Shown here piece by piece: positions 1-34,202 of a stretch of DNA of 64,000 nucleotides. The translations under genes and the position numbers were made by a program. Source of the stretch: an uncultured Kiritimatiellota bacterium (GTDB lineage: Bacteria; Verrucomicrobiota; Kiritimatiellia; RFP12; UBA1067); NCBI GenBank assembly GCA_934635045.1, contig CAKTZA010000009.1, positions 4,738 through 68,737 on the forward strand. The letters run 5' to 3'. Under the pieces are notes generated by a model, which worked only from the letters and a program-made list of their open reading frames with translations, was not told the origin of the DNA and did not search any database. Within the stretch, counting starts at the first letter, position 1; the number at the start of each line of letters is the position of its first letter.

Positions 1-1008
1 GCGCATCTCCTTCCCCTGAATGAACGCCACTTCGCACCGCCCGCCGCGCGCCAGCCGATCGGCGAACGAGTTCACAACGCCCGCGACCGTCTCCGGCTCC
101 ACGAGCGCCATCAGCGGGAAGAGCGTCTTCCACGTGTCCCAGACCGTGTAATGGTCGTCCCACATCTCGCCCCGTCGACGCGGCTGGACGAACGCGTGGA
201 AGAGGTGCGTGTAGAATCGAACCTGCGACGCCACGTCCGACTTCGGCAGGGCGACGGTCGACAGCCGCTTGTTCCAGACCGCGCGCGCCGACGCAGCGAT
301 TTCGTCGAGCGAACGCCCGCGCAGTTCCGCATCGTGGAACTGCCGCGCCTCGTCGATCGACGCGAACGACACGACGATGCGCAGCTCGCCGTTGCCCTTC
401 GTCGCGTAGAACCAGCAGTCGTACGGCGCGGGGTTCCAGTTGCCGAAATACGTGCCGCCGCCGAAGAGCGCCTCGCCCTCGACCTTCATCCAGGCGTTCG
501 AGCTCGCGACGGCACGGCCGATTTTGCAGAGGAAGTCAACCGTCGGGTCGCCTTTCGAGTAGGCGTAGATCGCGCCATTCGCCGTCGCCGCCACGGCGAC
601 GTCCGTCCCCAGTTCGGTGAGGCGCGCGCGGAAACGGTAGGGATGCGCCTCCAGAACCTCCATGTCCGAAGGGGTGCCGAAGACCACACGGAACAGCCCA
701 TACGACGGCACGCCACCCGTCCCCTGCGCGTGGAGCTGCGAGAAGCCGGCGACCCTGTCGCCGTGCCAGAAGCCGTTCGGTGGCGGGAAGGCCTGTCCGG
801 GCGACGGCCACACCGTGTCCGGGCTCGGATGGACACTGCCGTGCGGGACGCACGGCCCCAGCAGGCAGCTGCCGCGCCCGACGCGCGCGCCAATCCGCGT
901 GTCCACGAAATCCGCCGGGGTCGTCCCCGCGTCCGTCGCCATTGCCGCCGTGCCGCACAGCGCTACCACGGTGCCGACAAGAATTCCGCACAAGATTCTC
1001 AGTTTCAT
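1..1008 (-). CDS. GH92-like alpha-mannosidase, N-terminal 336 codons (3' end runs off the window)
   Basis: Absent from the ORF track because it has no stop in the window. My minus-strand translation from ATG 1008..1006 gives MKLRILCGILVGTVVALCGTAAMA (signal peptide)...GFSQLHAQGTGGVPSYG...FYTHLFHAFVQP...VWDTWKTLFPLMALVEP, open in frame to base 1. The motif pattern recalls GH92. ATGA overlap with the upstream stop at 1005. Confidence 0.6.
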   Translation of the reverse strand, partial: MKLRILCGILVGTVVALCGTAAMATDAGTTPADFVDTRIGARVGRGSCLLGPCVPHGSVHPSPDTVWPSPGQAFPPPNGFWHGDRVAGFSQLHAQGTGGVPSYGLFRVVFGTPSDMEVLEAHPYRFRARLTELGTDVAVAATANGAIYAYSKGDPTVDFLCKIGRAVASSNAWMKVEGEALFGGGTYFGNWNPAPYDCWFYATKGNGELRIVVSFASIDEARQFHDAELRGRSLDEIAASARAVWNKRLSTVALPKSDVASQVRFYTHLFHAFVQPRRRGEMWDDHYTVWDTWKTLFPLMALVEPETVAGVVNSFADRLARGGRCEVAFIQGKEMR

Positions 1009-4000
1009 TTCTTCTTGCTAAACCACAGAACCGCACAGCCATGCGGCGGCAATGTCACGTTCAGCCGCTTCCCGTCCGTGGGGACGGTGCGACCGTCATG
1101 CAACGAGACCGGTGCGGCAACGCCGCAGTCCAGCGCCCCAGACAGCGGAACGGAAACGTCCGTCGCCTTCGACTGGTAGTTGCCGAGATACAGGATCGGC
1201 CCCGCGTCGCGGGCGATGACCTGCGCCTCGACGAAGTGCTCGGCGCCGTCGCCCTCAACCAAAACATCCGGCGGAAGGCCGTTCTCGTCAAGGATGCCCT
1301 TCCACGCCTCCAGCATCCGCCGCGCCGTCGGCGTCGCGACGAACTGGTAGACGCGCCCCCGTCCAAACGTCCGAACCTTCACGTCAGCCTTGTCATCCGG
1401 TCGCCCGGACTCGAAGCGGTCGATTCGCGTGAAGTCGCGTACGCAGGGGAAGAAGCCGTCCGCATCCGCAATCGGCGCGCCATATTCGTCGCCAAGGAAG
1501 GTTTCCGGCGAGGCGAGGGCGATGCCGCCGCGCTTCACCCAGTCGCGCACCTTCGCGAAGGCCTTCGGATCGACCAGGTGCGCCGCCGACAGCATCAGCG
1601 CACGATAGCGGGAGAGCGTGCCGTCGAGAACCTGCGACGACGTGACGAGGTCGAGCGGACGGCGCGCGAACGTGCCGGCGTAGAACTCCTTCTCCGGCGA
1701 GAACGGACGGCGCAGGTCGCACAGCGTCTCGAACGAGACGAACAGCGCCGTCGTGCCGCGAATGCGCGGCACGGGCGCCAGCAGTGCCCCGTAGTCCTTG
1801 AGCGACCGCCCGATCTCGCAGAGCGCCGGGAGGACGTCAAACTCGTTGTTCGCCGGGTGGTTGACCGAATCCGCCGCCGGGAAGAAGCTCCAGTAGGTCG
1901 GCACGATTCCCTGATCGCCATGAACCACGTGGCCCCAGACGCCCAGCCGGTATTCGTCGGCCGTCTTCTTGCCGCCGTACTTGACCATCGCGCCCTCCGT
2001 GTTGACGAGGGGCTGTCCGCCCTTCTCGGCGAGCGAGCTCAACAGCGCGGTGAACATGTAGCCCGCGTTGCCGATGGCGAGCGGCATCGCCTCGGGCGAC
2101 GAGACGTCGACCCACGGCGTGAAGATGCGCTCGGTCGAGAGGACGTCCGCATACGCGGCGACGGCCTCAAGGTCGCAGCCCCGCGTCGCGTAGCTGTGCC
2201 GATGGTCGCCGCCGGACACCGTGGCGAACGGCTGGATCGAGAACAGCACGCGGTTCGTGCCGAGCAGACGCTCGATCATCTCGCGCTTGCGCGCAATCGC
2301 CGCCGTGTACTGGCTCTGCTGGAACTTGATCCAGTCGACCGAGGGTGCCAGCCCGTTCGCGAACGTGGCCTTGGCGGTCAGCGGAGGCGGCTCGATCTCG
2401 CCAAACGTCCGATAGGCCTTGCGCCAGCGGGCGTTCAGCGCGTCAATCGACCCGTATTTCGTCTTCAGCCAGCGCGGGAACGCGACCCGGTTCGTCGGCG
2501 AATACGAGATGTAGAGCGACTCGTTATCCAGCTCGATCAGCTGGAGGTTCGCCCCCACCCCCAGCGTGTCGTCGAGACATTCGCGGTAAAGCCGTTCCAT
2601 CGCCTCCCAGGTGGACGGCTCCTCCGGGCAGCCGAGGAGCGAGTAGTTCGAGCCATGCTTGACGTCGATGCCCTGAACGTCGCGCAGAAACGTGTTGTAG
2701 GTAAAGAACACGGCGTTCATCTCCAGCGCCCAGGACTGATTCTTGACTTCGCGCGCCGTCCGGCGCAGCTCCGACCGCTCGTCGCGCCACTTGCCGTCGA
2801 CTTTCTGCTGATGCGTGCGGCGCGGATTGACGACGCCCTTGAACGTGTCCAGGACGGGATAGAGCGTGAACGTGGCGTAGTCGAAATTGAAGAGATCGAG
2901 TGCCGGGCCGAGATAGAGCTTGGCCAGCGGCGACGTGATGCCGTTGCCGCCCTGCCCGATGATGCCGCCGATCTCGGTTCCCCACATGATCTTAGGATGG
3001 CCGTCGACCAGGAACATGCCGTCGCGCGCCGTGACCTTCGGCTGATGCGCGGCACCCTTGCGCGGCGGATAGCACGCCATCAGGCGGGCATAGGCGTTGG
3101 TCTCCCACGCATACTCCCGTTCGCAACACGCGAGCTCGCTTGCGAAGTCATTCTGCAGTTGCGCGAACTCGCCCGCCGTGTCAGCGTTCAGCTCCAGGAA
3201 GGCGACAAAATCGTGCCCCGCCGTCGACTTCTCCTGCTGGCGCGGATCCGGGTGGCCCGGCTTGCGCGTGAAGGAGTCCGACCAGACGCCGCGCAGCTGG
3301 CGGATCTGCTGTACATCGGCCCACAGCCGCGTCTCATCGCCCTTCCGAAGGATTGCCGCCGCGATGCCGACCTCGTTCGTCGCGCCATCCCGCGCCACGT
3401 GCAGCCACGCCGTCGGAAAGACGCGCCAGCCCTTCGCCGTGCAGGTCGCCGCGTCCAGGACGCGGTAGTAGGCGGACGGATAGGCCGGCAGGACGAACTT
3501 CGCCGGAACCCGCGCGCAGGCCGTCGTCCAAAAGATCTCGCCGTCCTTGATTTCCTGTCCGAAGGCCGAGCGCAGCGGAACGTCCATCTGCCTCACGGAA
3601 TCGAGGAACGCCTCGACGGCATCGACCGAGCCGACCTTGGAGTAGCGCGTCGCCTTGAGCGTGCGCCCCAGGCCGTAGGCGAGCAGCGTGTTCGCCATGC
3701 GATACTCGTCGCGCTGGCGGGCAACGGTATCGATGCGCTTGCACAGGGCCAGTTCCTTCTCGTCCACGACGTCTTTCGCCGCCGTGACGTCCGCCGGAAG
3801 CGTCACGTAGGTCTGCGCGTCCCGCGCGGCCTTCAGTTTCACGGTCTTGCCGTCGCGCGACGGCTCCTCCCGCCCGCGCTGGAGCGTGACCGCGATGATG
3901 CCGACAACCGCCGTGGTGTTGCGCGACACGATGTCGAGCGACTTGAGTTCCTTTTCGGGATGCGGATTCTCCACAACCTTGCGCCAGACGCCGACCAGTC

Positions 4001-4523
4001 GCCCGACGGGGTTGTAGCCGGCCCACGCGAGCGTCGCAGCGGACAGTTCCTCCGGCACCCACCAGTTGCCGACGTCCGCCTTGAACCGCATCGGCAGAAC
4101 CTCCCGCGTCCCGTCGCGATAGGTGAGCACATAGTCGAAGACCGGCTTGCCGAACAGCTTGTCGTCGCCCCACGCGGCGGACTGGAGAAAGTGCAGACGA
4201 TCCCACATGCCGGGCGGCAGCGCGATGCCCTTCACCTCCGGCGGGAAATACGGGCGGTTCGCGCTCTGCAGGGCGATGCAGGTGGCCCCGCCGTTCTTGT
4301 CGGGGTTGATGACGTCGAAGACGACGCCGGCGAACGAGCGCATTCCGACCGGGAACGTGCGCAGGTCGTTCAGGCCTTCGTCGAACCAGCCGCCCATGTA
4401 GTCGTTGGCGACCGAATCGGAGAAACCTGTCGTGACCTTCTTGCGCAAGTCCACGCAGCGAAACTCGGCGGCGGCGGAGAGCGTCAGCAGGACGCCCAGC
4501 CCCCAAAAACTCAAACGCTTCAT
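1005..4523 (-). CDS. Secreted GH42-like beta-galactosidase-family glycoside hydrolase with large N-terminal extension
   Basis: 1172-aa ORF with N-terminal signal peptide MKRLSFWGLGVLLTLSAAAE. The LQLIELDNESLYISYSP...FPRWLKTKYGSIDALNARWRKAY block resembles the GH42 acid/base region and following helix. Confidence 0.55.
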   Translation of the reverse strand: MKRLSFWGLGVLLTLSAAAEFRCVDLRKKVTTGFSDSVANDYMGGWFDEGLNDLRTFPVGMRSFAGVVFDVINPDKNGGATCIALQSANRPYFPPEVKGIALPPGMWDRLHFLQSAAWGDDKLFGKPVFDYVLTYRDGTREVLPMRFKADVGNWWVPEELSAATLAWAGYNPVGRLVGVWRKVVENPHPEKELKSLDIVSRNTTAVVGIIAVTLQRGREEPSRDGKTVKLKAARDAQTYVTLPADVTAAKDVVDEKELALCKRIDTVARQRDEYRMANTLLAYGLGRTLKATRYSKVGSVDAVEAFLDSVRQMDVPLRSAFGQEIKDGEIFWTTACARVPAKFVLPAYPSAYYRVLDAATCTAKGWRVFPTAWLHVARDGATNEVGIAAAILRKGDETRLWADVQQIRQLRGVWSDSFTRKPGHPDPRQQEKSTAGHDFVAFLELNADTAGEFAQLQNDFASELACCEREYAWETNAYARLMACYPPRKGAAHQPKVTARDGMFLVDGHPKIMWGTEIGGIIGQGGNGITSPLAKLYLGPALDLFNFDYATFTLYPVLDTFKGVVNPRRTHQQKVDGKWRDERSELRRTAREVKNQSWALEMNAVFFTYNTFLRDVQGIDVKHGSNYSLLGCPEEPSTWEAMERLYRECLDDTLGVGANLQLIELDNESLYISYSPTNRVAFPRWLKTKYGSIDALNARWRKAYRTFGEIEPPPLTAKATFANGLAPSVDWIKFQQSQYTAAIARKREMIERLLGTNRVLFSIQPFATVSGGDHRHSYATRGCDLEAVAAYADVLSTERIFTPWVDVSSPEAMPLAIGNAGYMFTALLSSLAEKGGQPLVNTEGAMVKYGGKKTADEYRLGVWGHVVHGDQGIVPTYWSFFPAADSVNHPANNEFDVLPALCEIGRSLKDYGALLAPVPRIRGTTALFVSFETLCDLRRPFSPEKEFYAGTFARRPLDLVTSSQVLDGTLSRYRALMLSAAHLVDPKAFAKVRDWVKRGGIALASPETFLGDEYGAPIADADGFFPCVRDFTRIDRFESGRPDDKADVKVRTFGRGRVYQFVATPTARRMLEAWKGILDENGLPPDVLVEGDGAEHFVEAQVIARDAGPILYLGNYQSKATDVSVPLSGALDCGVAAPVSLHDGRTVPTDGKRLNVTLPPHGCAVLWFSKKK

Positions 4524-4545
4524 CTGAAACAGATCCTTTCTCGTC

Positions 4546-6510
4546 TTAGCGAATGATCACCACCGTGCCGCGTTGCGAGCGCACGTAGACCTCGATCGTC
4601 TTCTCGGTGACGACCGCACGGATGCCCGGGCCGCAGTCGATGTCGTCGACCGTGATGTTGTTGCCCGCCTCGGCGTTGGTGAAGTTCCACTTGTCGTTCG
4701 TCACCTTCATCAGCGTCCAGTGTCCGCGTGTGCGCGGCCCCTCTTCGCCCATCACGCGAATCAGCGGCCGCCCCGTCTTCTTGGCGTTGTCGCGCCGCGT
4801 GACGGTGCCGCACGTGACGACGGACTGATCCGGATTCGTCAGCTCGTAGCCCTCGCGCGGGATGTGGAAGTTGTAGGTCGCATCACCGAAGAAATTGAGA
4901 TTGGTCGCCTCCAGACGAGGATTGTCGCCCAAGAAGCGAATCTGGCAGTTGCTGTCCGTCAGATCCTTGAAGTTCGGCTGGAAGTTCGCGACTCGAAGTG
5001 TCGCGTTCGAGATGTCCAGCCGCGTGTCGCGCGAATAGTCGCCGAGGATCAGCCGCGCACAGCCGAAGACGGCACCGTTCACGAGTTCGAGACGTCCGCC
5101 CGTTCCACGTGCGTCAGCCGAAGAGCCGCCGTCCACCACCACTTTCGCCGTCCCGTCATCGACAAGTTCGGCATTGTCAAACCGAATCAAGCCGTCGCAT
5201 CCGACCGTCGTCAGGCTCGCGTTCTTCGTCAGCATGACCTGTGCCCCGTCCGAGGCGCAAAAGACGTTGTTCGACGCCGACGCGGTCGCGCCGATGCGGA
5301 CGGTCGTGTTCTCGAAGGCGGCACGGGCCGCCGCGCCCGCGACGGAAAAGACGTTGCCCGTCGACGCATGGCCGATGTCCCAGTACGCTGTCGCGGCATT
5401 CGTGACGGTCAGCGTGCCGCCGACGGTGACGCGGTTGCCGACGTTGGCAGCGTCGCACCCCATCGACAGCGGGCCGCAGTAGGTGAGTCCGGCGTCCGCC
5501 GGAATCTCGAACGCATTCTCGCACGATTCGGCGCCGTAGCCCACGGCCACGCCGCTCTTGGTGTAGAGGTAGTTGCCAAGTCCGCGCACGAGCAGGCGGT
5601 TGCCGACAATCGGATTCGGATGCGTCGTGTCCGCCGCGTCGCGCGAACGCCCCAGCTGGATGTCGCCCTGCGCAAACACACGGCCGCCGTTGGCGATCTC
5701 GAACGTGTTGGACGAGCTGTTCTCGCCAATCCAGATGCCGTAGTCGGCCATCAGGGTCGCATCGTCCACCAGCACGCGATTTCGGTCGCCCGCACCTAAG
5801 TTGTAGTAGATTCCGACGCGCACGGACGCCCATTTGGCGCTGCCGACGAAAGAGGCAGTCGCCTTGTTCGAGACGGCGAAGACGTTATCCGAACCCTGTG
5901 CCAGGCGGAGTGTGTTGTCGTTCGTCACCCGGTAGGTCGTCCCCTCGCCTGTCACGACAATTTCGTTGCCGCCCGCCGTCGTCGTGTTAGCACTGACCTG
6001 AATCGACCCTTCGAATGTCGCGCCGTCCCTGATAACGAGGCGGTTCGGGCCCGCATTCGGACTGAGCGAGAAGTAGTTGGCGACCGAGCAAAGCGTCCCC
6101 CGACCGGCGACCGTCAACACGTTGCCCCTGTCGTTCGCGCCGTCACCCATGAACATTCGGTCGTTCAGCGTCCGCAGTGTGCCGCTCGACAAGAGGAACT
6201 CCCGACCGGCCCCATTAAAGAAGACGCGGTTGTCTGCCGTGAGGACATGCCCATCGCCGAGGGCCAGTTCCAGATTCGCGGACAGGCTCAAGTTGTAGAC
6301 GGTCAGCACCGAAGCCGATGCCAGCGTCAATGGCGACGACTGCTCAAGCACGACAAGGGCCGTGTCGGTTTCAGAAGGGATTACCCCCCCCCCCCCCCAG
6401 TTGTCCGAGAGGGCGAGATCGCCGCCATCCGCGCGATTCCACGTGTAATCGTCCGCAACGCCCGGCAGGGTGCCCGCCAAAACCGCCAACAGTGCTACTT
6501 GAATTTTCAT
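4546..6510 (-). CDS. Secreted repetitive beta-helix/adhesin-like protein with G15 tract near the 5' end and C-terminal ...VVIIR tail
   Basis: Start chosen at ATG 6510 (MKIQVALLAVLAGTLPGVADD signal peptide) behind the SD-like AAGGAAG. The track start at 6837 reads through intergenic repeats. The body is Gly/Asn/Thr/Val-rich and repetitive. Confidence 0.6.
   Translation of the reverse strand: MKIQVALLAVLAGTLPGVADDYTWNRADGGDLALSDNWGGGGVIPSETDTALVVLEQSSPLTLASASVLTVYNLSLSANLELALGDGHVLTADNRVFFNGAGREFLLSSGTLRTLNDRMFMGDGANDRGNVLTVAGRGTLCSVANYFSLSPNAGPNRLVIRDGATFEGSIQVSANTTTAGGNEIVVTGEGTTYRVTNDNTLRLAQGSDNVFAVSNKATASFVGSAKWASVRVGIYYNLGAGDRNRVLVDDATLMADYGIWIGENSSSNTFEIANGGRVFAQGDIQLGRSRDAADTTHPNPIVGNRLLVRGLGNYLYTKSGVAVGYGAESCENAFEIPADAGLTYCGPLSMGCDAANVGNRVTVGGTLTVTNAATAYWDIGHASTGNVFSVAGAAARAAFENTTVRIGATASASNNVFCASDGAQVMLTKNASLTTVGCDGLIRFDNAELVDDGTAKVVVDGGSSADARGTGGRLELVNGAVFGCARLILGDYSRDTRLDISNATLRVANFQPNFKDLTDSNCQIRFLGDNPRLEATNLNFFGDATYNFHIPREGYELTNPDQSVVTCGTVTRRDNAKKTGRPLIRVMGEEGPRTRGHWTLMKVTNDKWNFTNAEAGNNITVDDIDCGPGIRAVVTEKTIEVYVRSQRGTVVIIR
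6384..6398 (-). repeat. Homopolymer C15 (G15 on the coding strand) inside the beta-helix protein gene
   Basis: ttaCCCCCCCCCCCCCCCag; encodes W-G-G-G-G-V around codons 38-43. Confidence 0.95.
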
Positions 6511-6542
6511 TGTCTTCCTTCTTTTCATTTGAGATTGCGAAT

Positions 6543-6571
6543 AATATACCATTATTTTCCGTCTGAGTAAA
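6543..6571 (-). promoter_or_regulatory. Sigma-70-type promoter (TTTACT-N17-TGGTATATT) for the beta-helix protein gene
   Basis: Minus strand reads TTCCTTTACTCAGACGGAAAATAATGGTATATT. The block closely resembles the one at 9664-9691. Confidence 0.55.
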
Positions 6572-6726
6572 GGAAGCGTTTCGCAAAGCTTTCGGAAGCA
6601 ATTCGCACGGCTGGCGAGAAGCTGGCGAGAAGGAGGATAATACCTGTCGCAGTGCGGCATGCGACCACGAAACGCCACCGCCGCGAAGCGTCGTAGGAAT
6701 GCGTGCCTCACATGAAACGGGGAATG

Positions 6727-6841
6727 TCTCACACGGAGATACGGAGGCACGGAGGGAAAGCGGATGCAGTCGGTCGATGTTGCGCACCACGACTCCCCCA
6801 ACCCTACCACTTGAACCCTACCACTGGGGTCAGACACTCTT
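6727..6841. repeat. Intergenic repeat R, copy 1 (TCTCACACGGAGATACGGAGGCACGGAGGGAAAGCGGATGC...GGGGTCAGACACTCTT)
   Basis: Direct repeat of 7080-7193 with a handful of mismatches by eye. Confidence 0.85.
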
Positions 6842-6876
6842 TAGCAGACACTCTTTAGCACGGAATCAAGAATTTC

Positions 6877-7050
6877 AACGCAAAGATCGCAAAGACTCTC
6901 GACGCAAAGTCCACAAAGGCTTTGCGTTCTTTGCGTGACCCTCTGCGCTCTTGGCGTTAAAAAACGTCGCGACCTCATCGTTTCGTGTTCTCGCGCAGAG
7001 CCGCCGAGAACGCAGAGATTCGCCAGACGCCTCTGCGTCTCTGCGTGAAG
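6877..7050. repeat. GCAAAG/CTTTGC (and GCAGAG/CTCTGC) hairpin-rich intergenic element, same family as A1/A2
   Basis: Starts tttcaacgcaaag... and ends ...ttggcgttaa, like 24048-24125. Internal inverted GCAAAG...CTTTGC arms. Confidence 0.7.
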
Positions 7051-7079
7051 CCACGTCTCACACGACGAAACGGAATTGT

Positions 7080-7193
7080 TCTCACACGGAGATACGGAGG
7101 CACGGAGGGAAAGCGGATGCTGTCGGTCGACGTGCGCACCACACCGCACCAAACCCTACCACTCGAACCCTATCACTGGGGTCAGACACTCTT
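7080..7193. repeat. Intergenic repeat R, copy 2
   Basis: See 6727-6841. An R fragment also lies inverted inside nadE at ~53777-53822. Confidence 0.85.
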
Positions 7194-7200
7194 TTGCACG

Positions 7201-9654
7201 TCAATCCGTCTGGTCGGCGAGGTGCGTGACCGTCAGCGCGTCCCGCGACAGCTTGCCGGCGAACGTCAGCGTCCGCGGACGGCCCGGCAGCAGCGTGAGG
7301 CAGTTGTCGTCGAACTCGCCGCGCACGCCCTTCACGTTCGCCCAGACGTAGAACGCGGGCCTGTCCGTCGCGAGCTCGACCGCCCCCGACGGCGTGACGG
7401 TCGCCGTCACCTTCGCCCGCGCGAGCGGCATGTCCTTGTAGAACCCGAAGTGCCAGTCGTTCTGGAACGTGCCGCGCGCCGTCTTCAGCGTCAGCACGAG
7501 GAAGGTTGGGGCGTGGGCGTTGTCGGGGGTGGGCTGGGCGAAAGACGCGATCGCCGTCGAGCTGTCGGGCGGGAGCGCGACCGGCCGGGTCTCGGCGGAG
7601 ACGATGCGCCCGTCATACGTCCAGTACTCCAGCGTCAGCTCGCCCGTCACCGTCTCGGCGGTGTCGTTGAGCCCGAAGACCTGCCCGTGCGTCACGTCGG
7701 CCTGACCGTCCGCGACCGTCGGCTGGGCGACGACGGTGACCGGCGCGTAGAAGCGTTTCGCGAGATACTGCAGCGGCTTCCACTTGCCGCCGTACTCGAT
7801 CGAACTCCAGCTCGCGACAGGCCAGTTGTCGTTCAGTTGCCAGAAGAGCGTCCCCATGCAGCGCGGACGCTGCGCGCGCCAACCGTCCACGGCCATCTTG
7901 ATCGCCATGCCCTGCTGGAACTGCGACAGCAGCAGCTCGGCCTCGACGTCCTTCGCCGGACGGAAGTAGCGCCGCATCGTCTCGCGGATGCGCCGGTTGC
8001 CGCCGGGGTTCTTCTGGTGCCACTCGAATTCCGGTGCGCGCGACAGGATCTGCTCGCGCGTCGCGAACGTCTCGGCGACCTCCATCGACGGGAAGCTCTG
8101 GTAGCCGAACTCGCTGCAGAAGCGCGGCGAATAGGCGTAGTAGGCGTCAAACGGACGGTTCTCGTGCCAGACCTGCCAGTTGTGCATGTCGCCCTGCGCG
8201 TCGTTCGTCCAGTTGTCCGCGAAGTTGCCGGGGCCAGCGCACGGCGAACTCGGCCAAAACATCCGCGACGGGTCATAACGCGCGACCAGCTCGTCCTGCA
8301 CGGCGTGGCGCTTCATCAGCGCGTCCTTGTAGAATTCCGGCTCCGCCCGCGTCTCCTTGAACCACTTGAGCGCGCCGACGCACTCGTTGTCGCCGCACCA
8401 AAGCGCAATCGAGGCGTGGTCGCGGAGGCGGCGCAGCTGGTGGGCGAGTTCGGCGCGCACCTCGCCAAGAAATTCGTCCGTCGCCGGATAGACGGCACAC
8501 GCGAACATCTGATCGTGCCAGACGAGGAGGCCCAGTTCGTCGCAAAGATCGTAGAACGCGTCCTTCTCGAACTGCCCGCCGCCCCAAAGTCGGATCATGT
8601 TCATGTTCGCCGCCGCCGCGCTCGTCAGGAGATCGCGATATTTCTCCGGCGTCTGGCGCGACTCGAAGGCGTCACAGAGAATCCAGTTCGCGCCCTTCAT
8701 GAAGAGCTCGCGGTTGTTGACGCGCACGGCGAGCCGCGACCCCGGCTTACCCTTCGCGTCCACATCGGGCGTCGTCAGGATCTCGATCTTGCGCAGGCCA
8801 ATCCGGCGCGTCACCGTCTCGTCGCCGACCTTCACGGAATACGTGTAGAACCTCTGCTCCCCTGCACCATTCGGACACCAGAGCGGCGGGTTCGCAATCG
8901 AGAGGCGGTTCGTGACCGTCGACGCGCGTCCGTCCGCGTCCGTGACGTCCGCGAAGACCGTGAGGTCGCAGTGCGAGAGGTCGTCGTTGAACGTCTGCTC
9001 GGAGTAGACGTACTCGACCTTCAGCCCGTCGTGGGCGACGAGGCGCACGGGGCCGCAAAGGCCTGCCGTCATCTGCGCGAGGCCCCAGTCCCACCCAGCG
9101 TGGCAGGCGGGCTTGCGGATGAGTGCCTGGTTTTTCGCCCACGGCACGTTGCTCATCGGGAACGCGCGCCCGATTGCCGCGCGGCGGCGGTCGGCCTCTC
9201 GCCACGCGCTGCGGAAGACGGCGCGGATCTCGTTGCGCCCGGCCTTCAGCGCGCCCTTCGCGTCGAACGTCCAGCGCGCGAAGCGGTTCGACGTCGCACC
9301 GACCTTGACGCCGTTCAGGTAAATGTCCGCAAACGTGTCCGCGTCCTCGATCTCCAGCACGATGCGCCGCTTCGCGAGGAAGTCGGGCGCAACATCGAAC
9401 GCGCGCGCGAAAACCCAGTCCGTCTGGCCGACCCACTGGACGTTCGTCTCGTTGCAGCCCCAATACGGGTCGGGGATCCGCCCCGCGTCAAGCAGCGCGG
9501 TGTGGACGTCGCCCGGCACCCGCACGGCGCACGTCTGCGCGGCGTTCGTCACGGGGGACAAGCGCCAAATGCCCGACAAATCCACGACATCCGCCGACCA
9601 GGCGGAGGCCGCGACAACCATCAGAAACGAACAAACGAGTCTCTTGCTATTCAT
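7201..9654 (-). CDS. GH2 beta-mannosidase
   Basis: Motifs LFMKGANWILCDAF, NMIRLWGGGQFEKDAFYDLCDELGLLVWHDQMFACAVYPA and LWCGDNEC are typical of GH2 beta-mannosidases. Start set at MNSKRL (ATG 9654) because ATG 9663 abuts the -10 box. Confidence 0.8.
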   Translation of the reverse strand: MNSKRLVCSFLMVVAASAWSADVVDLSGIWRLSPVTNAAQTCAVRVPGDVHTALLDAGRIPDPYWGCNETNVQWVGQTDWVFARAFDVAPDFLAKRRIVLEIEDADTFADIYLNGVKVGATSNRFARWTFDAKGALKAGRNEIRAVFRSAWREADRRRAAIGRAFPMSNVPWAKNQALIRKPACHAGWDWGLAQMTAGLCGPVRLVAHDGLKVEYVYSEQTFNDDLSHCDLTVFADVTDADGRASTVTNRLSIANPPLWCPNGAGEQRFYTYSVKVGDETVTRRIGLRKIEILTTPDVDAKGKPGSRLAVRVNNRELFMKGANWILCDAFESRQTPEKYRDLLTSAAAANMNMIRLWGGGQFEKDAFYDLCDELGLLVWHDQMFACAVYPATDEFLGEVRAELAHQLRRLRDHASIALWCGDNECVGALKWFKETRAEPEFYKDALMKRHAVQDELVARYDPSRMFWPSSPCAGPGNFADNWTNDAQGDMHNWQVWHENRPFDAYYAYSPRFCSEFGYQSFPSMEVAETFATREQILSRAPEFEWHQKNPGGNRRIRETMRRYFRPAKDVEAELLLSQFQQGMAIKMAVDGWRAQRPRCMGTLFWQLNDNWPVASWSSIEYGGKWKPLQYLAKRFYAPVTVVAQPTVADGQADVTHGQVFGLNDTAETVTGELTLEYWTYDGRIVSAETRPVALPPDSSTAIASFAQPTPDNAHAPTFLVLTLKTARGTFQNDWHFGFYKDMPLARAKVTATVTPSGAVELATDRPAFYVWANVKGVRGEFDDNCLTLLPGRPRTLTFAGKLSRDALTVTHLADQTD

Positions 9655-18511: not shown

Positions 18512-19510
18512 CTACCGCTTGCGCGCGCGCCGCTTGAAGAGCGCACGCACGGCGTCGATGTACGGACGGTCGGTCGCGATCGGCAGCGTCTCGATGCCCG
18601 TCTTGAGGAAGAACCGCCGCAAGTCCTCGGTCTCGGACGCGGCGCGCGCGGTAAACGCACGGCGCACCTTCGCGCTGGACGTATCCACGAGGACGAGCGC
18701 CCCCGTCTCGGGGTCTTCGAGCTCCACAAGCCCCACGTCGGGCAGCGCGCTTTCCGCCGGATCGCACACGGGCACGCAGATGAGGTCGTGATGCCGCGCC
18801 GCCGCACGCAGGAGCCGCTCGGCAGAAGAACGGGCGTCCGCACTTTCCCCTTCCGCGCCCTTTCCTTCTTCCTTCTTCCCTCTTCCTTCTTCCTTCTTCC
18901 CTCTTCCTTCTCCCTTTTGCCCTCCCTTCTTCCTTTTCCCTTCTGGCATGAGGAAGTCGCTCACGAGAAAGACGACGGCGCGGCGCTTCTGGACGCCGTT
19001 CAGGAACTTGAGCGCGCCCTCGATGTCCGTGCCGCCCTGCGCGTCGTCCTCGGCGGCCAGCACCTCACGCACGAGGCGCATGACCGAGTCGCGGCCCTTG
19101 CGCGGCGGGATGTACTTGACGATCCGGTCGGAGAAGAGGACGAGGCCGATCTTGTCCTGGTTGCGGATCGCCGTCAGCGCGAGTAGCGCCGTCACCTCGG
19201 CGGCGAGCTCCATCTTCGAGCGGCGGACGCTACCGTAGCCCTGCGAGCCGGAGACGTCCACGAGAAAGAGGATCGTCAGCTCGCGCTCCTCGGCGAAGCG
19301 CTTGATGTACGGCACGCCCGTCTTCGCCGTCACGTTCCAGTCGATCGTGCGCACGTCGTCCCCGACCTGGTAGGGGCGCACCTCGTCGAATTCGACGCCC
19401 TGTCCCTTGAAGGTCGAGTGGTAGTCGCCCGCAAGCTGGTCGTCGATCAGCTTGTTGGTGAGGATCCGTATCTTCCCCACCTTCGCCATCAGTTCCTTTA
19501 CGTCAGTCAT
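18512..19510 (-). CDS. DUF58 (VWA-like) protein, usual MoxR partner, with in-frame KKEEG low-complexity insertion
   Basis: YHSTFKGQGVEFDEVRPYQVGDDVRTIDWNVTAKTG...LFLVDVSGS is the DUF58 signature. The insertion PEGKRKKGGQKGEGRGKKEEGRGKKEEGKGAEGE is encoded by the pyrimidine run 18845-18945. Confidence 0.8.
   Translation of the reverse strand: MTDVKELMAKVGKIRILTNKLIDDQLAGDYHSTFKGQGVEFDEVRPYQVGDDVRTIDWNVTAKTGVPYIKRFAEERELTILFLVDVSGSQGYGSVRRSKMELAAEVTALLALTAIRNQDKIGLVLFSDRIVKYIPPRKGRDSVMRLVREVLAAEDDAQGGTDIEGALKFLNGVQKRRAVVFLVSDFLMPEGKRKKGGQKGEGRGKKEEGRGKKEEGKGAEGESADARSSAERLLRAAARHHDLICVPVCDPAESALPDVGLVELEDPETGALVLVDTSSAKVRRAFTARAASETEDLRRFFLKTGIETLPIATDRPYIDAVRALFKRRARKR
18845..18945. repeat. 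Pyrimidine (CTTCCTTCTTCCCT) run in the DUF58 gene
   Basis: Encodes GKKEEGRGKKEEG on the minus strand. Confidence 0.85.
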
Positions 19511-19753: not shown

Positions 19754-21190
19754 TCAGATTCTCGCCTTCAATCCCGTGATCTCGCCCACATCGAGTTTCG
19801 TAAACGCGAAGCACTTCCTACCGAGGTCTTTCAACGACGCACCGATGAGATAGAGTTCCTTGTCGTCAAGGATGAGAAACCGGTCATGAAACGCCGCGCT
19901 TGTCTTCACGGAAAGGCCGCCATATTGAGCGTTGAACTTCGCGACATCGCTGTCCGCAACTTTGTTGCCGCGCACAGACGTCACAACTTCCACCTCGACC
20001 CCTTTGCGCTTTTTCGCAAGCATGTCAAGCGTTCCCGTTCCAACCCAGCTGTCAATCAACAGAATCGACCTCTTCGCCCGGGCTATCAATCTCTCCATCA
20101 GCGAACAGGCGTCCCACAACTGCCCGTCATAGAACACACCCTGCAAAGGCGGTTCCTTCGTCTGAATGAAGAAATCAACCTTACCCTCAAGCATCGACAA
20201 CCTCTCATCGTGTCCGGCCAACCGACGATCGATCCGATCCTCCAGCAGACACAACCTCTGGTTGACCGCATAGCCTTTCAGCAGATACTCGCGCAAAACA
20301 CCCGTGGCCCATTGCCGGAACTTCGTAGCCCGCAATGAATTGACGCGGTAGCCGACGGCGATGATCATGTCGAGATTGTAGAATGGGACAATTCGTGAAA
20401 TCATCCGCCCACCCTCGTTTTGAACCTGTGCAATTTTTGCACAGGTTGACGCCGCCTCAAGTTCGCCTGTCTTGTAAATGTTGTGTATGTGACGATTGAT
20501 GACCGTTCGATCCACGCCAAACAACTCGCCAAGCCGGGACTGATTGAGCCATACCGTCTCGTTTTCCACGCGAACGTCCAACCGCATTGTCTCGTTCGGC
20601 TGGTAGACAACGATCTGATTTTCCATGTTCTCCCTCATGACATCCATCTGCACAGGGTCGAATGCTGTCACCGTCAGGCCTTTCTCGACATACGATTTAA
20701 GGCTGTCGAAGACAAACGGCATCGAACGTCCGCCCGTCTTCGGATACGGCTTCGCGTAGAAGGCCGCGTCGATCCGAACGACGGGACAGCGCGACGAGCA
20801 GACGTAGACCTCCGCCGCCTTGCGGCCCAGCAGCTTCAGGGGCGTGGTCGCCTCCGCCAATTCGTAAAGCGCATACGTCTCGCCATGGGCCTTCGCCGGT
20901 TCGGCAAGGGAATAGCCCGTCGCCGCCAGTTCCTTGCATCCGACAACCGCCTTGAAGTGTGCCGTGAACGCGAGTGGACGCGCCCCTTCGGCAAAGAGAA
21001 CGATGCCGCCGACACGCTCGTGGAACGCAAGTTTTCCGCACTTCGGCAACGGCAGGTTGTAGAGCCTTTTCGCGGCAATCCACGCCGCGTTCTCCGGCCG
21101 ATACGTCCCGACCAGGACAATGTGCCCAGTGCCCCCTGCCCGCACCGCACGGCGCATCCGCTTGCAATTCTCTCTCCCGCTTTCCTTCAT
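19754..21190 (-). CDS. Fusion protein: about 158-aa unknown N-terminal domain (identical to that of the MTase at 25234..26748), RhuM-family core and PLD-like C-terminal region
   Basis: ETVWLNQSRLGELFGVDRTVINRHIHNIYKTGELEAASTCAKIAQVQNEGGR...FYNLDMIIAVGYRVNSLRATKFRQWAT matches the RhuM family pattern. C-terminal AFHDRFLILDD. Own TTTGGTATAAT box 7 nt upstream of ATG 21190. Confidence 0.7.
   Translation of the reverse strand: MKESGRENCKRMRRAVRAGGTGHIVLVGTYRPENAAWIAAKRLYNLPLPKCGKLAFHERVGGIVLFAEGARPLAFTAHFKAVVGCKELAATGYSLAEPAKAHGETYALYELAEATTPLKLLGRKAAEVYVCSSRCPVVRIDAAFYAKPYPKTGGRSMPFVFDSLKSYVEKGLTVTAFDPVQMDVMRENMENQIVVYQPNETMRLDVRVENETVWLNQSRLGELFGVDRTVINRHIHNIYKTGELEAASTCAKIAQVQNEGGRMISRIVPFYNLDMIIAVGYRVNSLRATKFRQWATGVLREYLLKGYAVNQRLCLLEDRIDRRLAGHDERLSMLEGKVDFFIQTKEPPLQGVFYDGQLWDACSLMERLIARAKRSILLIDSWVGTGTLDMLAKKRKGVEVEVVTSVRGNKVADSDVAKFNAQYGGLSVKTSAAFHDRFLILDDKELYLIGASLKDLGRKCFAFTKLDVGEITGLKARI
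20648..21122. repeat. 475-bp direct repeat N, copy 1 (N-terminal domain of the RhuM fusion)
   Basis: Line-by-line comparison with 26254-26728 showed no mismatch. Confidence 0.9.
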
Positions 21191-21197
21191 GCCGCGT

Positions 21198-21206
21198 ATT
21201 ATACCA
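21198..21206 (-). promoter_or_regulatory. Extended -10 box TGGTATAAT, 7 nt upstream of the RhuM-fusion ATG
   Basis: Minus strand: TTTGGTATAATacgcggcATG. Confidence 0.55.
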
Positions 21207-21262
21207 AAGTGCGCCGCCTCAGCGGCACAATGCCCCAAAAGACACGAACGACTCGCAGGCTT

Positions 21263-22975
21263 TCAGCCTCCGTAGCTCACGAAACCGAAGTTCCCATTCG
21301 CGTGGATGCGGCGGATCGTCTCGGCGGCGAAACACGCCTGGTCGGCCACGTTCAGCCGAATCGGCCGTTCGGTCGGCAGCCCCAAATGCGTCAGCACGAT
21401 CTTCAGGATCGTCGCCGGGTTCTCGAAGCGCGCGGGCGCGGACACGCCGACGGCGATGTAGACGTCCTCCATCGGCGCAATGCCGACGCAGATCGTGATG
21501 CCCTTCTCGCTGCAGCGGCTCAGACTCTTCTCCATAAGGAAAAGCTCCTCGCCCGTCAGGAGGTCGCGGCACTTGAGACCGACGCCTGCCTTCATCGCCA
21601 GAATCTCCAGCCACGTGTAGCGGTAGTTCGCGTAGTACGTCGCCGCGCGCGCGTCAATGTCATCGAATTCCTCCTTCCGCGCCAGCACACGCCGAATCGC
21701 CGGACCGTCGCCCTGGTCATCCATCATTGACGCGAAGTCTCCCACCACGCAGTCGAGCGTCGGGTCGAGGTCGGCCAACGAGTCGCGCTCTTCAAGGAAA
21801 CCGAGCCGAACCGCCGCCTGACGCCGTTCCTCCTGCGTCAGCTCCGTGACGACGTGGGCGCGGACAAAATCCATCGTGACTTGCCGGACATCCTCGTAAA
21901 CCGCGAGCTTGGCGTCACGCCTCGTGGCGTCCTTGACGAATGCGAAATCGATTGGGCCATTGTAGGCGGACAGCGGAATGTCTTCAGGCTGGATGTAGTC
22001 GCCGTCATCCGGCTCGTCTGAATCGGAATCGTCGTCCCAGTCGTCCACGCCCTCGTCGCGGCCCTCGCCGAAGTCGAACACGTCGTGGATGTCCTCGTCT
22101 GCCTGCTCGTCGACGAGCCCAAGGTCGGCAAGCTCGCGCGGCGTCCGGCCGCGCCCTTCCCACGTGCGCGTCGTGTCCAAAAGCGGGCTGAGGGCCTGCG
22201 CGAGACGCTGGACGGCCTCATCGTCGGACGGTTCCCAGTCGCAGTTCTCGCGGATGTACTTGAGCGCCGTGACAACCTTCGCGCCATTGACGCGCGCGTT
22301 GCACTGGACGCCCAGCGTGTCCAGTTCCTGTTCAGCCCTGTCAAGACGATACGCTTTCTTGACGAACCTCTCGAACGCGCGGCTCTCTTTCGTTTCCTCG
22401 GCCGCCATCGGCTCCTCGTAGAGGAGGAAGTCGTCTTCCGGCAGCACGGCGAGGTCGAGCTTGCGGAAACTGGCCATGGTGTCCGCGACCGTGCGCGTGA
22501 TCTCGGCGTTCGCGTCCTTCGACGGAGTCGGCTCCTCGTCCCAATCACTCGACGTCAGGTCGTGGTAGACGATGACGCGCGGCTCGTCCGCCTTCAGCTG
22601 CCAGGTCGAGAACCAGATCTCCGGCGCATCGCACGGCCCGTCCAGCAGATGCTCAAGGTCTTCCGGCTCGGGGCGGTTCGCGAAATAGTCGTGAAGCCGG
22701 TCGACGAGCGCGTCGAGTTCGGCGACCGTCATCGCGTCCGAAATCGGCGCGTCGTGATCTTTCGCGTAGCCGTTGTAAAGCGAGACGAACTCCTCCAGCG
22801 TAAGGACGCCATAGAGGTTCGCCGCCGCGTTGAGGCAGCGCAGCGCGAATTCCTCGCGCGCGTTCAGCTCGGCGGGCTCGTGCGCACCCTCGTCGCGCCC
22901 GCATTCTTCCTCCGCCGCGCTGTCGTCCTTCCAGACGCCATCCGGCCCAATGATCGTGTCAAATGGTCTTTTCAT
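21263..22975 (-). CDS. Hypothetical, strongly acidic 570-aa protein
   Basis: Start at MKRPFDTIIG (ATG 22975), in ATGA overlap with the upstream stop. Asp/Glu tracts (DDWDDDSDSDEPDDGDY). No motif I recognise. Confidence 0.5.
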   Translation of the reverse strand: MKRPFDTIIGPDGVWKDDSAAEEECGRDEGAHEPAELNAREEFALRCLNAAANLYGVLTLEEFVSLYNGYAKDHDAPISDAMTVAELDALVDRLHDYFANRPEPEDLEHLLDGPCDAPEIWFSTWQLKADEPRVIVYHDLTSSDWDEEPTPSKDANAEITRTVADTMASFRKLDLAVLPEDDFLLYEEPMAAEETKESRAFERFVKKAYRLDRAEQELDTLGVQCNARVNGAKVVTALKYIRENCDWEPSDDEAVQRLAQALSPLLDTTRTWEGRGRTPRELADLGLVDEQADEDIHDVFDFGEGRDEGVDDWDDDSDSDEPDDGDYIQPEDIPLSAYNGPIDFAFVKDATRRDAKLAVYEDVRQVTMDFVRAHVVTELTQEERRQAAVRLGFLEERDSLADLDPTLDCVVGDFASMMDDQGDGPAIRRVLARKEEFDDIDARAATYYANYRYTWLEILAMKAGVGLKCRDLLTGEELFLMEKSLSRCSEKGITICVGIAPMEDVYIAVGVSAPARFENPATILKIVLTHLGLPTERPIRLNVADQACFAAETIRRIHANGNFGFVSYGG

Positions 22976-23991
22976 GTTCTGATCGTCCTTTGCCGTAAGT
23001 TTTCCCTCGTACAAGCTCCCTGTTCGTCGATCTCATTCCAATTCCCCAGCACCTGCCAGGTTCCGCCGTTGTCCGCGCCGACCCGCCGCAGACGGCCCTC
23101 CGCCTTGAGCAGACGAAGATTCCTTTCAATCCCCGAACGCGAAAGCCCCGTTTCCCGCACCAGATCCGCCGTCGTCCATTCCGGGCGGCTCGCAAGCGCA
23201 GCCAGGATTTTCTCCTTACTTTTCTCCTTACTCTTGGCGTCGACCTTTTCGCTCGCCAACGCACGCCGCTCCCGATAAAACGTCACCTTCAGGGTCGCCG
23301 ACTCTTCGGAAACGACGGGCACCGGAAGCCCCATCTTGGCACAGGCCTCAAAATAGCGCGACACGCCACCACCCCAGCCCTCGACTTCGCCCATGTATTC
23401 CAGCGCCGCGCCAACGGCATGGTTCCGAAGCTTCGAGAATCCGTTTCGCGCGTCTTCGACCGTCATCTCGCGGACGAGGCCACCGGGCGAGACAACCTCC
23501 AGTCGATCATCATAAACGGCCACGTAAACGCACGACGGCGACAGGTAGTCACGATGGAAGACGGCATTGCAAATGGCCTCGCGAATCGCATCGATCGGCA
23601 ACTCGTAGACGTCCCGCCGCGCCGTGCCGACAAGTTCCGTGCCCACGCGAATGTTCCGCAGCACGAACTGATAGACCTTTTCGCCGCTCTTCACGTCCAC
23701 GGCAATCAGCGACTTGCCTTCGACGACAGCGGGCTTCACATCGATGGAGATGTGCGGCGAGCACATGTTCAAGACCGCATCGACGATGGCGTCCATTTCG
23801 GCGGCGACCTTTTCGCGCGGGATGCCGACAATCCGCCCCGTCTCGTTCTCGACGCCGAACAGCAGCCGTCCGCCGCGCCCGTTGGCGAACGCCACGACGG
23901 TCTTGACGAACTTCAGCGAGTCCTTCGGACGCGCCTCCTTGAACTCAAGCGAGGCATTCTCGCCCTGTGCAATCTGTTCAAGCAACGTCAT
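22972..23991 (-). CDS. AlbA_2/Schlafen-like divergent-AAA domain protein with HATPase_c_4-like and C-terminal wHTH regions (COG2865 type)
   Basis: GENASLEFKEARPKDSLKFVKTVVAFANGRGGRLLFGVENETGRIVGI (AlbA_2 pattern). IREAICNAVFHRDYLSPSCVYVAVYDDRLEVVSPGGL. Start at MTLLEQ (ATG 23991). Confidence 0.65.
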   Translation of the reverse strand: MTLLEQIAQGENASLEFKEARPKDSLKFVKTVVAFANGRGGRLLFGVENETGRIVGIPREKVAAEMDAIVDAVLNMCSPHISIDVKPAVVEGKSLIAVDVKSGEKVYQFVLRNIRVGTELVGTARRDVYELPIDAIREAICNAVFHRDYLSPSCVYVAVYDDRLEVVSPGGLVREMTVEDARNGFSKLRNHAVGAALEYMGEVEGWGGGVSRYFEACAKMGLPVPVVSEESATLKVTFYRERRALASEKVDAKSKEKSKEKILAALASRPEWTTADLVRETGLSRSGIERNLRLLKAEGRLRRVGADNGGTWQVLGNWNEIDEQGACTRENLRQRTIRT

Positions 23992-24053
23992 GCCGCCACG
24001 CCTCTTGTCTGAAGAAACCGCAAACAAACCATCTCGTCCTCGGCATTTTCAAC

Positions 24054-24368: not shown

Positions 24369-25244
24369 TCAACAGGCAAGATCCAGCGGCAAGTCGGAAA
24401 TATCCTTAAGGCGCTTACCGTCAATCATGTTGTTTAGCAAGACCATCGCCTCGTCACGGCTCTTCGACGAACATTTCTTCACCGCCGACAAAAGCTCATA
24501 CAACGCGAAATGATAAACACAGTCAATGTCGCCCGTGCCAAGGGCCAGCGAGGCGATACGCGAGGGCGAAGGTTCTGCCGTAACGACCATGATATGCGGC
24601 ACACGCCCCTTGCGGTCGCGCATCAGGTTCAAGGCTTCCGTCCGACTGTTCTGCGCACGGTCGCTCCGCATTGTCCACTTCGCCGAAATCGACGCATGGA
24701 GGATTGGCTTGCCTCCGTTCTTCTTGCGCAAGTCGGCTTTCAGGCAGATCGAATCATCGACAAAATCAGCAAGTCGATTGATTTCATCGTCCTCACACAA
24801 AGCACGGGCCACAACCACATCCGGCGACACGAGATAGTCGTTGCCCAACGCCGCCTGGAGTTTCGGATTCTCGCGAACAGCCTCCGCCAAGGCGAAGAGA
24901 TGTTCGTACTGGGCGAAATCCGCCGTCTTGACACGGCTCTTGTTTCCCAACCTCGCCACACTCCAAGTACCGGGGCGCAGATTCTGCAATTTCGGAAACG
25001 TCGACTCCACGAATTTTGCAACGGCATCCTCAAAACTGGCTCCGGCTGTCTGCCCTTTCTCCTTGGCACACGCATATCCCGCGCCAAGGAATCTCGCAAT
25101 CCCGTCGGCTATCGCACACGAAAACGCATTCTTTCGGTCGGCATTGGACGCCACCCCCTCCTTGTCAAAGCAGAGAATGCCGCCCTGGACAAGCCGATCA
25201 TGGAAAGCCTTTCTGGCTTCGGCAAACACAACCTCACGCCTCAT
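24369..25244 (-). CDS. Type II restriction endonuclease, NgoMIV/Cfr10I/Bse634I family (CCGG-core recognition likely)
   Basis: SPD...(47 aa)...SAK-WTM-RSDR-AQNSRT-E. The D-to-K spacing of 47, K-to-E spacing of 14 and RSDR four residues after K reproduce, as I recall them, NgoMIV D140/K187/R191-S-D-R194/E201. Start at MRREV (ATG 25244). Confidence 0.7.
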   Translation of the reverse strand: MRREVVFAEARKAFHDRLVQGGILCFDKEGVASNADRKNAFSCAIADGIARFLGAGYACAKEKGQTAGASFEDAVAKFVESTFPKLQNLRPGTWSVARLGNKSRVKTADFAQYEHLFALAEAVRENPKLQAALGNDYLVSPDVVVARALCEDDEINRLADFVDDSICLKADLRKKNGGKPILHASISAKWTMRSDRAQNSRTEALNLMRDRKGRVPHIMVVTAEPSPSRIASLALGTGDIDCVYHFALYELLSAVKKCSSKSRDEAMVLLNNMIDGKRLKDISDLPLDLAC

Positions 25245-33600: not shown

Positions 33601-34202
33601 TGGAAGCTGTCAATGCCGATCTCGACAGCCGCGGGGGACTGCGCGCCGGACACGTCGACCTGCGCGAGGCGCGTCCAGCCGCCCGATGCCAGCTGCCAGT
33701 GCCCGAAGACGTCGAGACGGCCGTTGGGCAGGGAGAGGCCATCCGGCCACGCCACCCCCAGCGTCACCGTGTCAGTTCCCTTCTCGATTCCATAGAAGCA
33801 GAAGTTCGTCACCGAAGACAATGTGAGGTTGCTGTCGCTTAATGCGGAGTTGTTGGAGGCGGGGAGGCGCGGAGGGTCTTTGACAGGATCCACAGGATTT
33901 GAGGCGTTTGGCGTATCCGTCTCGGCAATCCTGTCAATCTTGTCAATCCCGTCTAAAAAACCACTCGCCGCTTCGGCGCACCGTTCCTTGTACGTCCGCG
34001 TCACCGAGCCCTCCATCGTCGCAAAGGCCATGAAGCCGCCGAGGACGAAGACCGTCGGCCCGCCCAGCCGCCGGACCGCCGCGCGCACACGGGCGGGACA
34101 GCGCGACAGGCCAAGCGCCAGCGCGGCAAGGGCGACCCCGCCCAAGCCAAGGCAACAGCCCCACAGCACGACCGAGTCAAAAGCCTCTCGATCCAATGTC
34201 AC
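30627..34202 (-). CDS. Giant membrane-anchored/secreted protein with many thrombospondin type-3 (DxDGDG) calcium-binding repeats and a C-terminal His/Cys (clan-CD-peptidase-like) domain
   Basis: N-terminal hydrophobic segments. More than 12 copies of DTDGDGL(x)DG(x)E...GT(D/N)P. C-terminus ...[12 protein letters not shown]...[12 protein letters not shown]... GTG start at 34202; the start is uncertain. Confidence 0.6.

Follow-up and report, generated by a model that had tools for sequence, protein, structure and literature searches.

A length-variable poly-G tract in the gene for a predicted secreted beta-helix protein of a gut Kiritimatiellia bacterium: a candidate slipped-strand phase-variation locus

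We analysed a 64-kb stretch of DNA from an uncultured Kiritimatiellota bacterium (contig CAKTZA010000009.1, 64,000 nt in all, hereafter the window), in which a gene for a 654-residue protein, predicted to be secreted and to fold as a beta-helix, carries an uninterrupted run of 15 guanines near its 5' end (Table 1). The run reads as C15 on the plus strand and as G15 on the coding (minus) strand, where it lies in the context AAC TGG GGG GGG GGG GGG GTA ATC CCT, encoding N-W-G-G-G-G-V-I-P. A first-pass annotation of this DNA had placed a G15 run at 6384-6398 (TGG GGG GGG GGG GGG GTA), about 38 codons from an ATG at 6510, and had called it the only long homopolymer of the window. The sequence confirms this placement, and the run is indeed the sole homopolymer of at least 8 nt, the next longest being two C7 runs. 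Given the G+C content of the window (64%), base composition predicts ~0.004 runs of at least 15 nt. The tract is thus longer than composition predicts and lies above the length at which G/C tracts become hypermutable, about 7 or more (PMC4965091, PMC3401435), as in known phase-variation loci built on simple sequence repeats (SSRs). Since GGG accounts for only 21% of glycine codons, and the other eight Gly3 runs of the window are written in mixed codons, the tract is not a by-product of glycine coding.

The start of the gene is supported upstream of the tract. A sigma-70-like promoter match and a Shine-Dalgarno-like AAGGAAG precede the ATG, and the N-terminus, MKIQVALLAVLAGTLPGVA followed by DD, looks like a Sec signal peptide; a signal-peptide-like layout is found in all family members, and the AlphaFold2 model described below has a predicted local distance difference test score (pLDDT) under 50 for residues 1-17 of this putative signal peptide. 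Further on, the motif TW..GGD....NW, followed by two to three small residues and then (L/V)P, is shared with an ortholog of 67% identity and with relatives of 27-34% identity. Together, the promoter-like match, the AAGGAAG, the signal-peptide-like N-terminus and the conserved motif argue for the upstream start, and translation beginning beyond the tract was rejected, as the putative signal peptide and the N-terminal motif ahead of it are conserved. The tract therefore falls just after the signal-peptide-like N-terminus in the supported frame, where the first-pass annotation had put it.

Tract lengths divisible by three give the full-length protein, runs of 6-18 guanines encoding one to five glycines, whereas at lengths of 3n+1 and 3n+2 a stop is met 0-4 codons past the tract, so that indels other than multiples of three abolish the product. 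Termination had been expected within ~30 nt of a +1 or -1 change; it comes within 13 nt, and the alternative-frame open reading frame (ORF) listed earlier at 6371..6790, ending ...GGGGGNPF, is present as described.

Table 1. The poly-G gene and its surroundings, the tract in near-identical gut contigs, and the poly-C tracts of related species. Positions are those of the window unless a contig is named; CDS, coding sequence.
Feature	Position	Strand	Remarks
CDS, 654-aa secreted (predicted) beta-helix protein	4546..6510	-	ATG 6510, stop 4546
Putative signal peptide, codons 1-19, MKIQVALLAVLAGTLPGVA	6454..6510	-	predicted cleavage before DD; read by eye from sequence
G15 homopolymer, hypermutable tract	6384..6398	-	codons 38-43 of CDS; starts at CDS nt 113, codon 38
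TAA met directly after tract at length 3n+2	6381..6383	-	frame reading
TGA met after G-N-P-F at length 3n+1	6371..6373	-	frame reading; realised in contig L003 (G13)
Shine-Dalgarno-like AAGGAAG	6514..6520	-	3 nt before ATG 6510; from sequence
Sigma-70-like promoter TTTACT-17-TGgTATATT, extended TG	6543..6571	-	consensus match only
Downstream gene, 1172-aa secreted GH42-like protein	1005..4523	-	starts 22 nt past stop of poly-G gene, own AAGGA
G6	contig L012		
G9	contig L013		
G12	contigs L010, L011		
G13	contig L003		
G15	contigs L001, L008, L009, and window		
G16	contig L004		
G18	contigs L006, L007		
At least 14 G	contig L005		begins inside tract
Poly-C near flp, C14	L018:3305-3318; L029:3539-3552; L094:617-630		
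Poly-C near flp, C12	L095:619-630		

We compared the tract with the consensus sequences of 12 contigs (L001, L003-L013), independent of one another and drawn from several gut-metagenome studies, in which the gene is at least 99.6% identical. The samples behind these contigs are ERZ4561911, ERZ28614456, ERZ28613859, ERZ28615229, ERZ28615772, ERZ27287454, ERZ27287277, ERZ27263854, ERZ27270415, ERZ964365, SRR12199320 and SRR10203118. Rather than a fixed G15, which by the first-pass annotation would have spoken against a switch, these near-identical strains carry G6, G9, G12, G13, G15, G16 and G18, and two of the consensus sequences are out of frame. Pairs of sequences differ at up to 12 positions (0.4%) in the 3,200 nt past the tract, and several lengths occur on identical backgrounds: the window (G15), both G18 contigs, the G15 contigs L008 and L009 and the G12 contig L011 show 0 differences over this distance, and the same holds for L001 (G15) against L004 (G16). 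Similarly, the 90% cluster in the protein database comprises 11 distinct sequences that differ chiefly at the tract (WGV, WGGV, WGGGV, WGGGE, WGGGGV and WGGGGGV, together with three calls shortened at the N-terminus). Such varied lengths on identical backgrounds indicate that the tract changes at a rate orders of magnitude above that of ordinary sites; judged from these comparisons, it is locally hypermutable, that is, a site of localised hypermutation. At the tract site an interrupted TGGGGCGGG is found in the 67% ortholog, and NW-GG-xLP in distant relatives; the long pure run is hence derived in this lineage. Within a single BioSample (SAMEA4765626), one assembly (S001) has G15 and another (S002) G12, a hint of switching within a population, but the two are also one single-nucleotide polymorphism apart.

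Two further observations concern diversity around the tract. Across window positions 2500-7300, the same contigs, drawn from several unrelated studies (Hadza and others), are no more than 0.4% apart over 3.2 kb, and many are identical, a diversity unusually low for a species sampled across several studies. Moreover, the codons that do vary within the species cluster at the 5' end: 9 of 14 lie in the first 59 codons (codons 2-59, window 6334-6507), 10 of 14 are non-synonymous, and each of codons 43, 44 and 45, which come directly 3' of the tract, is among those that vary. Mutation associated with slippage, diversifying selection and sequencing errors past the homopolymer are all conceivable causes of this clustering.

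Were the true tract fixed, the length differences would have to be artefacts of sequencing or assembly. Illumina chemistry performs poorly on long G runs, and two contigs (L004 and L005) break at or inside the tract, both with an unexpected G-to-T change 11 nt past it; however, an artefact would need to yield mostly multiples of three, to recover G18 twice, in assemblies of two separate series, to give G12 on each of two haplotypes and G6 in two separate protein variants, and to reach G6 and G9, which are far beyond stutter range from G15. We consider this explanation scarcely credible. A poly-G read-end artefact was rejected as well, given the unique flanks on both sides of the tract in 13 assemblies. 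As for the G-to-T change, L004 (~33-45) and L005 (~19-31) read TCTTAA for TCTGAA, creating an in-frame TAA. This could be a genuine nonsense allele; if not, it would be an Illumina error made behind the poly-G where coverage is low at the ends of the contigs. On the practical side, the tract breaks assemblies and splits gene calls, with 601-, 626- and 45-residue products called from the same gene; the 601-residue proteins P0009 and P0011 were accordingly rejected as evidence of frameshifting, their contigs starting at or in the tract.

Both length states may be represented among the sampled sequences. When contigs are counted per protein, ~16 are in frame (ON) and two clearly out of frame (OFF), namely L003 (G13) and L004 (G16). 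The former is clean: its flanks are intact, and the gene is split into a 45-residue N-terminal product and a 626-residue call from an alternative-frame ATG. The latter lies 11 nt from a contig end with a suspicious G-to-T change nearby. A search for shortened N-terminal OFF peptides returned that of L003 only. Among the contigs with a length other than G15, 6 of 8 are in frame (binomial p ~0.02 against the expected 1/3), an excess that would follow from selection on the frame combined with drift in length.

Selection on the frame need not mean a switch. The tract may be a hypermutable yet non-adaptive hot spot, at which variants with one to five glycines in the loop are neutral and out-of-frame mutants are deleterious, purged or transient, with no selected ON/OFF strategy. 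The predominance of in-frame contigs sits well with this account, as do the loop variation of distant relatives, which have two to three small residues after NW, and an estimated ratio of nonsynonymous to synonymous substitution rates (dN/dS) of 0.455 against the 67% ortholog, which shows the gene to be constrained; but it is harder to square with uninterrupted G runs of up to 18 in several haplotypes, though one synonymous GGG-to-GGC change would stabilise them, with the use of a minority glycine codon, with the very occurrence of OFF consensus sequences, and with a second variable G/C tract beside Flp pilin genes in related species (see below). We regard a non-adaptive hot spot as possible, if rather unlikely. 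Gene decay was rejected, the gene being intact, in frame in most strains and under the constraint just given.

Nor need the run act through translation. It could work at the nucleic-acid level, as a G15 quadruplex in DNA or mRNA, or through RNA-polymerase slippage giving mixed transcripts, in which case genotype would be loosely linked to expression. Fifteen guanines are the minimum for a three-tetrad quadruplex with 1-nt loops (in principle G3-G-G3-G-G3-G3), and slippage of RNA polymerase on long homopolymers has precedent in bacteria. Yet strains with G6, G9 or G12 keep the gene intact, so that a quadruplex is not required, and the strong in-frame bias shows that the DNA reading frame matters, which leaves this account very improbable.

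We then considered the protein itself. Searches of Pfam, NCBIfam and PDB sequences with the 654-residue protein returned no family, and an exhaustive phmmer search of 1.84 billion representatives found only 43 matches at E <=1e-3, which make up a small unannotated family. Orthologs were found neither in GTDB species representatives nor, by DNA pattern or peptide patterns, in JGI metagenomes. An AlphaFold2 model built on a shallow alignment (pLDDT 75, predicted template-modelling score 0.80) is all-beta with short strands, and the top Foldseek matches are all right-handed beta-helices: Ag43 (7koh), EspC, SepA, Hap, pertactin (1dab), PL6 lyases and tailspikes. All of these matches are non-significant (best E = 7e-3, template-modelling (TM) scores of 0.25-0.29). 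The predicted fold is hence a right-handed beta-helix, in agreement with the fold class named in the first-pass annotation, and this model, together with a signal-peptide-like N-terminus read by eye, would fit a secreted or surface-located product.

Known classes of beta-helix protein were tried in turn. A type V autotransporter was rejected, as the model has no C-terminal beta-barrel, Pfam and NCBIfam give no match and the protein ends ...RGTVVIIR. The class with the autotransporter-associated beta-strand repeat (PATR, TIGR02601) and PEP-CTERM were rejected because an NCBIfam scan at E <=1 gave only a spurious match and the ~8-residue tail has no PEP motif. The protein likewise does not qualify as a beta-helix polysaccharide lyase or hydrolase (such as PL1, PL6 or GH28), with no Pfam match, no PDB sequence match, and PL6 at a Foldseek E of at least 0.8.

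The C-terminus is conserved in the family as G-x-x-[ILMV]-[ILV]-[ILV]-R-COOH. The window encodes two unrelated signal-peptide proteins that both end in G-x(0-2)-hydrophobic(4-6)-R-COOH: the 654-residue protein (RGTVVIIR, window 4546-4572) and the product of a 767-residue ORF (GTGFCLIIR, 41813-41840). The same ending closes 15 of 15 distant family members inspected and is absent from the other long ORFs in ~470 kb of clade DNA. From this distribution, the G-x-x-hydrophobic-R tail may be an unrecognised C-terminal sorting tag.

Taken together, these results make the tract a well-supported candidate for a slipped-strand phase-variation locus. We propose, with a probability of roughly 0.6, that slipped-strand mispairing alters the tract and thereby switches the secreted beta-helix protein, and perhaps also the glycosidase encoded after it, ON and OFF, the ON state being the favoured one in these guts. 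Mispairing at replication would add or remove guanines, reversibly. At lengths of 6, 9, 12, 15 and 18 the cell would make the full-length secreted protein with one to five glycines in the loop after the conserved Trp38, an in-frame series that might additionally tune the protein, and at other lengths a product of 39-47 residues, the OFF state. The locus would then be a translational phase-variation (contingency) switch of a secreted or surface protein in an uncultured human-gut member of the Kiritimatiellia, and its ON state would predominate in the sampled gut populations. Of the phase-variation reading first offered for this DNA, the tract, its frame, the truncation and the length variants have stood; its contingency, that is adaptive, part we infer, and most consensus sequences are in frame.

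Several points weigh against this proposal. OFF lengths account for only 2 of ~18 consensus sequences, and one of these two sits at the end of a contig beside a suspicious G-to-T change. The predominance of in-frame sequences would be explained just as well by plain purifying selection acting at a mutational hot spot. Furthermore, Illumina sequencing and stutter in the polymerase chain reaction can distort long G runs, and the protein has no family match and weak fold matches (best E = 7e-3, TM 0.25-0.29).

The proposed switch may extend to the gene directly downstream, which encodes the GH42-like protein and is present in 12 of 12 contigs. It starts 22 nt past the stop of the poly-G gene and no terminator is predicted between the two; on this layout, the two genes are probably co-transcribed. 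The GH42-like gene is thus possibly subject to polarity, through which the OFF state may lower its expression.

A second variable tract came from a scan for homopolymers of at least 9 nt in 403.5 kb from 80 related loci. Only three such runs were found, two of which are an orthologous C14 (L018 and L029, from two related species) located between miaB and tandem Flp pilin genes (PF04964), with a prepilin peptidase after them. In the L029 species, another two contigs have C14 and C12 with identical flanks. Hence long G/C runs in this clade are rare, variable and adjacent to surface-structure genes. As the intergenic poly-C steps by 2 nt, the multiples of three at the poly-G gene suggest selection on the frame rather than a 3-nt mutational step, though this is a single case. 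About 72 nt separate the poly-C tract from the flp ATG downstream; a perfect hairpin lies 5' of the tract, and a possible upstream ORF of 47-54 codons (..TPPPPY..) encloses it. A good promoter match is found ~150 nt upstream, and by position the tract may sit in the 5' leader. The arrangement resembles the promoter poly-C tract of Bordetella pertussis fim2/fim3, which is said to have been described by Willems et al. in 1990, but differs in that the Kiritimatiellia poly-C occurs in species other than that of the window and may be part of the 5' leader. It is a tentative and rather doubtful idea that gut Kiritimatiellia run a small 'phasome' of long G/C tracts that stochastically switch surface equipment, namely the tailed beta-helix protein with the downstream glycosidase here and the Flp/Tad pilus in sister species. 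If true, this would extend multi-locus SSR contingency behaviour from pathogens to glycan-degrading commensals.

The poly-G gene shares several traits with the contingency genes of Campylobacter jejuni (such as cj1139 and cj0031; PMC3401435, PMC6321876): a G/C homopolymer within the 5' part of the gene, a surface-related function (putative in the poly-G gene), truncation by frameshift and a tract length that varies between closely related strains. In C. jejuni, poly-G tracts have a modal length of 9, and tracts extended from G8 to G11 become 10-fold more mutable (PMC3401435). On the analogy of this rise of mutability with length, G15 should be highly unstable. The Kiritimatiellia case differs in its longer tract (G15-18 against a mode of 9), in its host, an uncultured GC-rich (64%) commensal of the Planctomycetes-Verrucomicrobia-Chlamydiae (PVC) superphylum, and in having one tract in 64 kb. 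The repeats of Neisseria and Haemophilus, for their part, are often tetra- or pentanucleotides, the repeat unit of Neisseria opa being CTCTT, and they come from pathogens or commensals in culture, in which loci are numerous and rates have been measured, whereas the evidence here is comparative only. What the poly-G gene would have in common with the Neisseria and Haemophilus loci is a repeat just after the signal-peptide or start region of an outer-surface protein gene and stochastic ON/OFF switching (Moxon's 'localised hypermutation'; PMC11868660, PMC5953494).

Closer in phylogeny is Akkermansia muciniphila, also a gut member of the PVC superphylum, in which G8 and C10 runs in surface-polysaccharide genes have been proposed to be phase-variable (PMC3048395). 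That proposal was drawn from one genome without length-polymorphism data, whereas in the Kiritimatiellia the polymorphism is documented across strains. In its modelled structure, the protein is most like autotransporter passengers (Ag43 7koh, pertactin 1dab, EspC, Hap), the best structural matches, which have a long right-handed beta-helix behind a signal peptide; it differs from them in that these matches are non-significant (E >=7e-3, TM <=0.30), that it has no C-terminal barrel and that it ends in G-T-V-V-I-I-R. Our literature search found no paper linking Kiritimatiellae with phase variation. Since slippage-driven phase variation has been recorded almost wholly from cultured pathogens, a strongly polymorphic G6-G18 tract in an uncultured human-gut PVC commensal, with a polymorphism that can be documented from public metagenomes, is of interest in itself. 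It also offers a concrete locus at which to ask whether commensal glycan degraders bet-hedge against phage, immunoglobulin A or changing substrates.

The remainder of the window supplies context. A GH2 beta-mannosidase is encoded upstream of the poly-G gene, and further glycosidases are spread across the window. Its MiaB is 98% identical to that of an uncultured human-gut Kiritimatiellaeota metagenome-assembled genome (MAG) and 70-96% identical to those of numerous Kiritimatiellia MAGs from gut and rumen. Upstream of the poly-G gene, the intergenic DNA contains two 88%-identical copies of a dispersed repeat of ~135 nt (6714-6846 and 7067-7198), and it is here that many metagenome contigs break or show structural differences; an Rfam search of the window, this repeat included, gave no match. 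Heptanucleotide repeats occur at 61332-61390, 47642-47665, 18862-18944 and 60165-60205, as (GGGAACG)n, corresponding to coding-strand (CCCCGTT)n, and as (GAAGGAA)n. A number of them fall within genes, for example as a PRSPFPVPRSPFP insert in a folC-like ORF and as a Lys/Gly/Arg-rich insert in a DUF58-like ORF. Lastly, the G+C content drops to 58-62% between positions ~18000 and 32000, where we noted genes for a RhuM-family protein (19754-21238), a Schlafen/AlbA_2 and HATPase_c_4 protein (22972-24027), a C-5 cytosine methylase (25234-26748) and a 1191-residue TSP3-repeat protein (30627-34202); this stretch looks like a mobile or defence island.

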